Of a stretch of DNA of 64,000 nt, positions 3,546 to 3,974 are shown one piece after another. Each line of letters begins with the position of its first letter. Position 1 is the first letter of the stretch. The notes beneath the pieces are model-generated. The model was not told where the DNA came from, searched no databases, and saw nothing but the letters and a program-made list of their open reading frames with translations. Source of the stretch: Vicinamibacteria bacterium (GTDB lineage: Bacteria > Acidobacteriota > Vicinamibacteria > Marinacidobacterales > Marinacidobacteraceae); NCBI GenBank assembly GCA_963555995.3, contig OY821641.1, positions 3,040,001-3,104,000 on the forward strand, written 5' to 3'. The translations under genes were made by a program, and so were the position numbers.

Positions 3546-3974
3546 TCACTTCCACATCTTTTCGTCAACCACCCGCATTTCCCGAAGCAAGGCGTTGAAA
3601 TCATCGGCCTCCTCCTGCGTCCAGGTCGCGAACCGGAGCAGGCGCTTGCGGCGGGCTTCCACTTCAACGGCGTCCCTAACAGCCTGTGGCAAAACCCACG
3701 CGGCGTTCGACGGGCGATGCATCCCGGCTGAACCGCGCCTCTACGAGGCGCTCATCGTTGCGTTTCGGTCGGAATACACCCGGTATTCCTCCCTCACGCG
3801 CCTTGTCAGCCGGGCGCCTCGCCCGTCTCGGCACTCACGTGGGTTTCACCACAGACTGCTAAGAATGCGGAGCACCGTCGTGTTCAGGCTCTCGCCCGCC
3901 TCCTCGCTCATGGCGCGCAGGCCCCGCAAGAGGTCCTCGTCCACGTTGCGGATGGTGAGCCGGGTGGAGGGCAT
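3546..3974 (-). pseudogene. Ribbon-helix-helix (FitA/Arc-like) antitoxin gene split by a 179-bp insertion
   Basis: 5' part MPSTRLTIRNVDEDLLRGLRAMSEEAGESLNTTVLRIL and 3' part RDAVEVEARRKRLLRFATWTQEEADDFNALLREMRVVDEKMWK* join in frame once the insert and one CTAA are removed. Confidence 0.85.
3680..3858 (-). mobile_element. MITE-like structured element, copy 1
   Basis: Terminal inverted repeats CAGCCTGTGG.../...CCACAGACTG, flanked by CTAA direct repeats (3676-3679, 3859-3862). Homologous to 46533-46801. Confidence 0.9.

Follow-up and report, generated by a model that had tools for sequence, protein, structure and literature searches.

Prokaryotic MITEs with long stem-loops are already well known (excerpts of PMC2229807, PMC10969869, PMC3184786, and PMC2267715). 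Families moved in trans by an IS, namely RUP with IS630-Spn1, Correia, and Chunjie, are described in excerpts of PMC2229807, PMC3184786, and PMC10969869 as short, non-coding elements with IS-like terminal inverted repeats, a target duplication, many mostly intergenic copies, and a long stem-loop. Transcripts of ERIC and Correia elements are cut by RNases (excerpts of PMC10969869 and PMC2229807), and REPINs, likewise hairpin repeats, are thought to travel as folded single strands (excerpt of PMC3184786). In a survey of 183,232 genomes, MITEs were almost wholly genus-specific at 95% identity (excerpt of PMC11602168). MITE interiors are usually treated as filler. The family analyzed here shares the listed properties of RUP, Correia, and Chunjie. 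It differs from RUP and Correia, and apparently from Chunjie, in that its interior is unrelated to the partner IS and its structure is conserved on one strand, and in that its core is common to different phyla and unrelated ends.

Results

Two copies of a MITE in the window

The window, a stretch of 64,000 nucleotides from a Vicinamibacteria bacterium, contains two copies of the MITE at the positions and on the strands (Table 1) that an earlier note, made from the sequence alone, had assigned to them; the stems and the core quoted there are present. Copy 2 corresponds to the 179-bp form plus a two-hairpin insert, and 133 of its first 151 bases are the same as in copy 1. Compared with shuffled sequences, folding of the structured strand gave z-scores of −9.95 for copy 1 and −11.74 for copy 2, with the folded stretches one base off at one end. 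The structured strand was more stable than the opposite strand by 20.9 kcal/mol (copy 1) and 24.2 kcal/mol (copy 2).

Table 1. Positions of the two MITE copies and their parts in the window
Feature	Position	Strand	Remark
MITE copy 1	3680..3858	-	179-bp form
Copy 1 4-bp target duplication CTAA, low side	3676..3679	.	
Copy 1 4-bp target duplication CTAA, high side	3859..3862	.	
Copy 1 5' terminal inverted repeat	3843..3858	-	15 of 16 bases match the 1,515-bp IS at its left end
Copy 1 3' terminal inverted repeat	3680..3695	-	
Copy 1 conserved core	3754..3805	-	internal loop rich in purines; short stems that include tandem G-A; 5-base loop on the apical hairpin
Copy 1 side hairpin (optional) with a closing C-GNA-G loop	3735..3751	-	
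MITE copy 2	46533..46801	+	269-bp long form
Copy 2 target duplication CTAG	46529..46532	+	its TAG terminates a PotC-like permease ORF (45714-46532)
Copy 2 target duplication CTAG	46802..46805	-	gives the stop codon to a desaturase-like ORF (46802-47851, minus strand)
Copy 2 conserved core	46586..46637	+	
Copy 2 90-base insert	46684..46773	+	located in the 3' arm; consists of two self-contained hairpins

The site of copy 2 was empty in all 13 congeners in which it was located (14 searched); with none of the 13 congeneric sites filled, insertion sites are not conserved and are lineage-specific. A contig of run X3 joins across this site, with a few flank bases differing. In contigs of RNA runs X1 and X2, which contained a small share of the words, copy 2 was covered a few times more deeply than its flanks, and in X3 approximately 100 times, depths that do not rank expression. 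Copy 1 seems to split a small ORF on the minus strand, with 38 codons before and 42 after the element (window 3862-3975 and approximately 3546-3675). The first piece of this ORF had no Pfam match, and the flank of copy 1 was not found in the five congeneric genomes searched for an empty site.

A dispersed family with an IS1182-like partner

The source genome (G000; 3.8 Mb, 70% GC) contains 131 matching loci, including 79 full 179-bp and 10 long copies. These elements carry terminal inverted repeats, are short and without a transposase, and occur as many dispersed copies. Near-identical elements were present in all 15 congeneric genomes searched, in 32 of 41 genomes overall, as well as in records with Acidobacteria or Vicinamibacteria in the title (L081, L164, L176, L179, L180); only 11 of the 41 genomes yielded a close transposase.

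An exact 4-bp duplication flanked 42 of the 89 full copies in G000 and had the form YTAR in 41 of these 42. Copies with an exact duplication were the younger ones, with a median of 2 differences to the nearest copy versus 11 for the others (179-bp form). A two-base TA duplication was rejected because the duplications at both IS and MITE copies are 4 bp long and vary in sequence. At older copies with unequal flanks, the two bases beside the element were still complementary (82 and 83 of 89) and the outer two drifted, as if two pairs lengthened the stem. Head-to-tail arrays of two to three copies with a single 4-bp target in between were also seen in G000 (C1:1754220-1754764, 1812857-1813401, 2739520-2739881, and 2893989-2894350).

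Pairing of termini identified an autonomous IS with the CAGCCTGTGG ends of the MITE, which the earlier note had proposed to look for: three identical 1,515-bp elements in G000 share the 16-bp ends and encode a 475-aa protein with DUF772 and DDE_Tnp_1. Like IS1182 and IS5 elements, the partner combines these domains with short inverted repeats and a 4-bp duplication. Its best family match, NCBIfam NF033551 (IS1182), reached 146.2 bits versus a cut-off of 270, and all IS5 models stayed below their cut-off; the partner is therefore called IS1182-like only. The spread in trans by an IS5/IS1182-type transposase that the earlier note had postulated is likely, with an IS1182-like element of the same ends present. 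MITE and IS have sequence in common at the ends only, and derivation of the MITE interior from the IS was rejected for this reason. One internal deletion derivative of the IS1182-like element, 342 bp long, was present as a single copy (G000 C1:3647893-3648234); this one case fits an advantage of a folded interior.

At one IS copy, contigs from runs X4 and X5 skip 1,519 bases and rejoin with a 4-base overlap, so this IS site is polymorphic in the population. An end-to-end IS circle junction was not seen in the contigs of four runs, a form of assembly that drops rare forms. In the relative G018, a related IS has AATT on both sides in three of the four copies read. Among 34 MITE-ended elements of this genome, selected among the first 100 ends of a list of 132, 21 had exact duplications of nine different 4-mers, with AATT in 10 of the 21 and YTAR in one. 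The shift to AATT common to IS and MITE in G018, and YTAR in G000, indicate that the target preference follows the resident transposase. The MITE is very likely mobilized by the IS1182-like transposase, which would act in trans through the common 16-bp ends. In relatives, IS copies were also placed at MITE ends (L247, L257). A second DDE element of approximately 1,970 bp with different ends and CTAG-containing flanks was present in four copies (L005-L008), one of which adjoins MITE-end-like sequence.

G000 also has one Y1_Tnp gene (C1:751513) of the RAYT type, and this gene, the hairpin form of the MITE, and its DNA-type loops would suit a REPIN-like element moved by the Y1 transposase as single-stranded DNA. 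Such a route is nevertheless most improbable. The MITE ends do not flank the RAYT gene in G000, which has a different repeat of its own, and the nearest element locus lies approximately 26 kb off; moreover, the ends and the 4-bp duplication are those of the DDE element, which the target preference follows as well. The repeat on both sides of the RAYT-type gene (G000 C1:750600-752500) is a very abundant REP-like repeat with 667 pattern matches in the genome, including window positions 4033, 4200, 4286, and others.

Selection on the fold of one strand

The same strand was the more stable one in all 71 distinct 179-bp copies. In these copies, 23 of 66 pairs occurred as at least two Watson-Crick types, each in at least two copies, and G-T cells outnumbered A-C cells 328 to 29; the compensatory changes and the strand-specific wobble that the earlier note had read from two copies recur in the larger alignment, with significant covariation. 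Double changes were found in 28 of 61 pairs of a mixed set of 18. Pair states private to one copy comprised 17 G-T and 14 A-C, the expectation for strand-neutral mutation. Non-major states common to several copies comprised 23 G-T and 6 A-C (P = 0.002), and majority states 4 and 0, respectively. Tree-based change counts favored G-T on all branches, terminal ones included (58 to 19), and are inflated by mosaic copies; since the copies are mosaic, the singleton-versus-shared count was relied on instead. Changes per column amounted to 0.63 in the unpaired core versus 3.3-4.8 in the outer stems and the side hairpin. A leading/lagging strand bias was not seen in G000 (44 of 89, with the origin guessed from GC skew). 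The difference between shared and private variants supports selection on the fold of one strand, as the earlier note had proposed, and ties this selection to the spread of the element. With moderate confidence, the fold raises the spread of the MITE.

Inverted repeats are known to undergo arm repair. Template switching from arm to arm could generate compensatory changes in an unselected interior, and common descent could account for the shared core. Block-like changes in both arms, mosaic copies, and the core-disrupted and core-less copies in G018 agree with such an origin, which we nonetheless consider improbable: arm repair is strand-symmetric and would erase wobbles, and it leaves the excess of G-T among shared variants beside near parity among private ones unexplained, as well as the slow unpaired columns and a core found in ten phyla beside unrelated ends.

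The internal loop was intact in 14 of the 34 MITE-ended elements of G018, disrupted in 16, and the core was absent from 4. Exact duplications flanked 12 of the 20 elements with a disrupted or absent core, in which disruption may have followed insertion. Thus, the core seems to favor spread or persistence and not to be essential, or the lineage is relaxed. Element lengths in G018 ranged from 125 to 315 bp, which argues against a strict ruler. In the G018 elements (L396-L429), a 20-base module entered at bulges and loops, replacing two unpaired bases (net +18). It enters the MITE fold, REP-like hairpins, and itself, occurs also in L027, L032, and L208, and has 31 matches in G000 (e.g., C1:1062618 and C1:2750058; reversed control, 0), where it is also the end of a longer repeat. 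The module may be the footprint of another, hairpin-targeting element.

A core shared by ten phyla

A second MITE family of G000 combines the same core with GTGTGGTGTCCC ends (C1:62849-63024, 1514164, 2037383, 2141614-2141789, 2495595-2495770, and 2757872-2758047). In the five copies counted for this family the ends are unrelated to those of the first and the core is kept, with one inner stem replaced. The GTGTGGTGTCCC ends also occur in two gammaproteobacterial records (L085, L194), and an autonomous partner with these ends was not seen in G000. In genomes from another family, the core is combined with other ends and the side hairpin is missing; this hairpin is optional and limited to some lineages.

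With a core pattern derived from the G000 copies, 121 matching loci were obtained from the portion of the species-representative genomes that was scanned (approximately 12,000 stretches estimated; chance expectation approximately 90, by a hand calculation with uniform composition). According to the record titles, these loci belong to ten phyla: Pseudomonadota, Actinomycetota, Acidobacteriota, Desulfobacterota, Bacillota, Gemmatimonadota, Myxococcota, Bacteroidota, Spirochaetota, and Bdellovibrionota. Records of Streptomyces, Chromobacterium, Thioalkalivibrio, and Pseudoalteromonas are among those with the core. Further matches were found in metagenomes (approximately 10,000) and viral contigs (5). 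The core is present as the earlier note had described it; its reach had been underestimated there, as it spans phyla beside unrelated ends.

The anchors are invariant in the 121-locus set by construction; the stems are not part of the pattern. Among 119 distinct cores, the closing pair was C-G in 58 and G-C in 58, and the next pair outward was Watson-Crick in 114. In 82 cross-phylum sequences (86 non-redundant ones minus four side-hairpin forms), 83.5% of the cells were paired versus 56.8% after shuffling and 28.8-40.8% after sliding, and the closing pair was C-G and G-C in 40 each. The motif strand was the more stable one at 101 of 109 cross-phylum loci. TA-bounded ends could be placed at 42 of the 121 loci, with a median length of 161 bp; the distance between the left TA and the start of the core was 52-56 bases in 34 of these 42 elements, and the 42 had 40 different 7-base starts. 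The window's element has a 54-base spacing to the core, as in the cross-phylum elements. A covariance model built from the cross-phylum set matched 102 places in G000 (150 of 685 candidates scored).

Beside the core, 130 ORFs were present at 80 of 121 metagenome loci. No recurring class, and hence no dedicated neighbor gene, emerged among the 77 with a Pfam match, which included no transposase, no reverse transcriptase, and one phage integrase. The Rfam search suggested in the earlier note gave no match for the window at gathering score; for 20 of the 121 cross-phylum loci searched at E ≤ 1, it gave five weak matches, all below gathering score and none core-specific. The main texts of the open-access papers searched contained no description of the MITE family or the cross-phylum core, and the main text of a preprint on intergenic features is without mention of MITEs.

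Comparison with ERIC

A loose-pattern search of Escherichia coli K-12 gave 38 hits versus 40 for a control pattern. Seven of the 38 are repeats in which the anchors AAGGCG and AACGCA enclose a TAC-loop-GTA hairpin, with tandem G-A. We take them to be ERIC from their size of approximately 127 bp and their TA ends, the record carrying no such annotation. The anchor-bearing strand was more stable in the five of the seven that were folded. In anchors, tandem G-A, and hairpin, the E. coli repeats (presumably ERIC/IRU) partly resemble the core described here. ERIC is shorter; its inner arm is longer, its loop comprises 4 bases, and its termini are TA. The window MITE, with 179 bp and a 4-bp duplication, lies outside this format. 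The cross-phylum covariance model found no match in E. coli K-12, either with filters on (whole chromosome) or with filters off (10 loci). Judged from these sequence features, ERIC kinship of the core is no more than a plausible lead.

Nature of the folded strand

The side hairpin carries a C-GNA-G loop in 58 of the 71 copies, and all four middle bases occur. According to an excerpt of PMC13037366, GNA alone among 64 triloops gives a DNA mini-hairpin of very high stability; its RNA counterpart, assayed in a tetraloop form, is much weaker. The G-U wobbles and tandem G-A are equally suited to RNA, and the strand asymmetry was greater with RNA parameters (17.4 kcal/mol) than with DNA parameters (9.4 kcal/mol). 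The chances that the folded species is single-stranded DNA are about even. Two further readings of the structure, both based on a consensus, were dropped: about half of the copies lack the ends of an integron attC site, and the loop did not fit a kink-turn by eye.

By a simple home-made gene model, the folded strand was antisense to the read-through gene at 34 and sense at 14 of the 48 informative among 81 independent loci (P = 0.006). The antisense-to-sense ratio was 23 to 5 in older and 11 to 9 in young copies, a borderline contrast (P = 0.057); the stronger bias in older copies suggests a purge of co-transcribed copies. At metagenome loci the orientation leaned antisense, 20 to 34, which was not significant (P = 0.076).

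The earlier note had favored an uncharacterized ncRNA or ribozyme, a proposal that was not supported. In its present form, a read-through or internal transcript would fold, bind the transposase or a host protein, and promote spread. The wobbles, tandem G-A pairs, purine-rich loops, and larger asymmetry with RNA parameters suit such a transcript; the loss of sense-oriented copies implies that transcripts are active, and transcripts of ERIC and Correia are, as cited above, RNase substrates. The Rfam result, the antisense bias, the DNA mini-hairpin-type loops, and insertion sites and gene contexts that are not conserved count against it, and on balance we regard folded RNA as possible but rather unlikely.

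A function for the host would be an even less probable reason for keeping the fold. Copies could then act on mRNA stability or on termination, the role suggested for ERIC in Yersinia (excerpt of PMC2229807), and by the same gene model 28 of the 89 copies have a stop codon as their direct target, versus 318 of 1,589 YTAR sites. The strand bias, however, sits in multiplied and not in private variants, sites are lineage-specific, sense copies are depleted and not enriched, and the Pfam-matched neighbors are unrelated genes; we hold this function to be very unlikely.

Discussion

New in this work are the probable cognate transposase, its change of target in step with the MITE, and the DNA-type loops. 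Our preferred reading, which has about the same chance of proving right as of proving wrong, is that the MITE is moved by the IS1182-like transposase and that its interior is selected to fold on one strand, probably as single-stranded DNA during copying. A point against this reading is that DDE transposases are known to act on double-stranded ends. A rod formed by the single strand during copying would bring the two MITE ends close to each other and expose the conserved core for binding by a protein. Effects at the RNA level would be a by-product, against which the host would select wherever co-transcription includes the folded strand. The DNA nature of the folded species and protein binding to the core are suggested with weak to moderate confidence.

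More tentatively, the core could be the working part of old pan-bacterial foldback parasites, with ERIC as one offshoot. It would form a single-stranded scaffold of fixed geometry, recognized by a conserved protein, in which the core lies approximately 54 bases inside the end; ends of various DDE transposons would have been swapped onto this scaffold. This is a possibility to which we give less than even weight.

That a folded core persists in ten phyla although the ends around it are unrelated suggests a function unnamed in the open papers searched. Since G000 has both the element and an intact, polymorphic partner, the role of ERIC-like cores and the movement of such repeats are directly testable there. 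If the pan-bacterial scaffold exists, it would mean an unrecognized single-strand step, in DNA or RNA, or an unrecognized host factor in the transposition of short elements.
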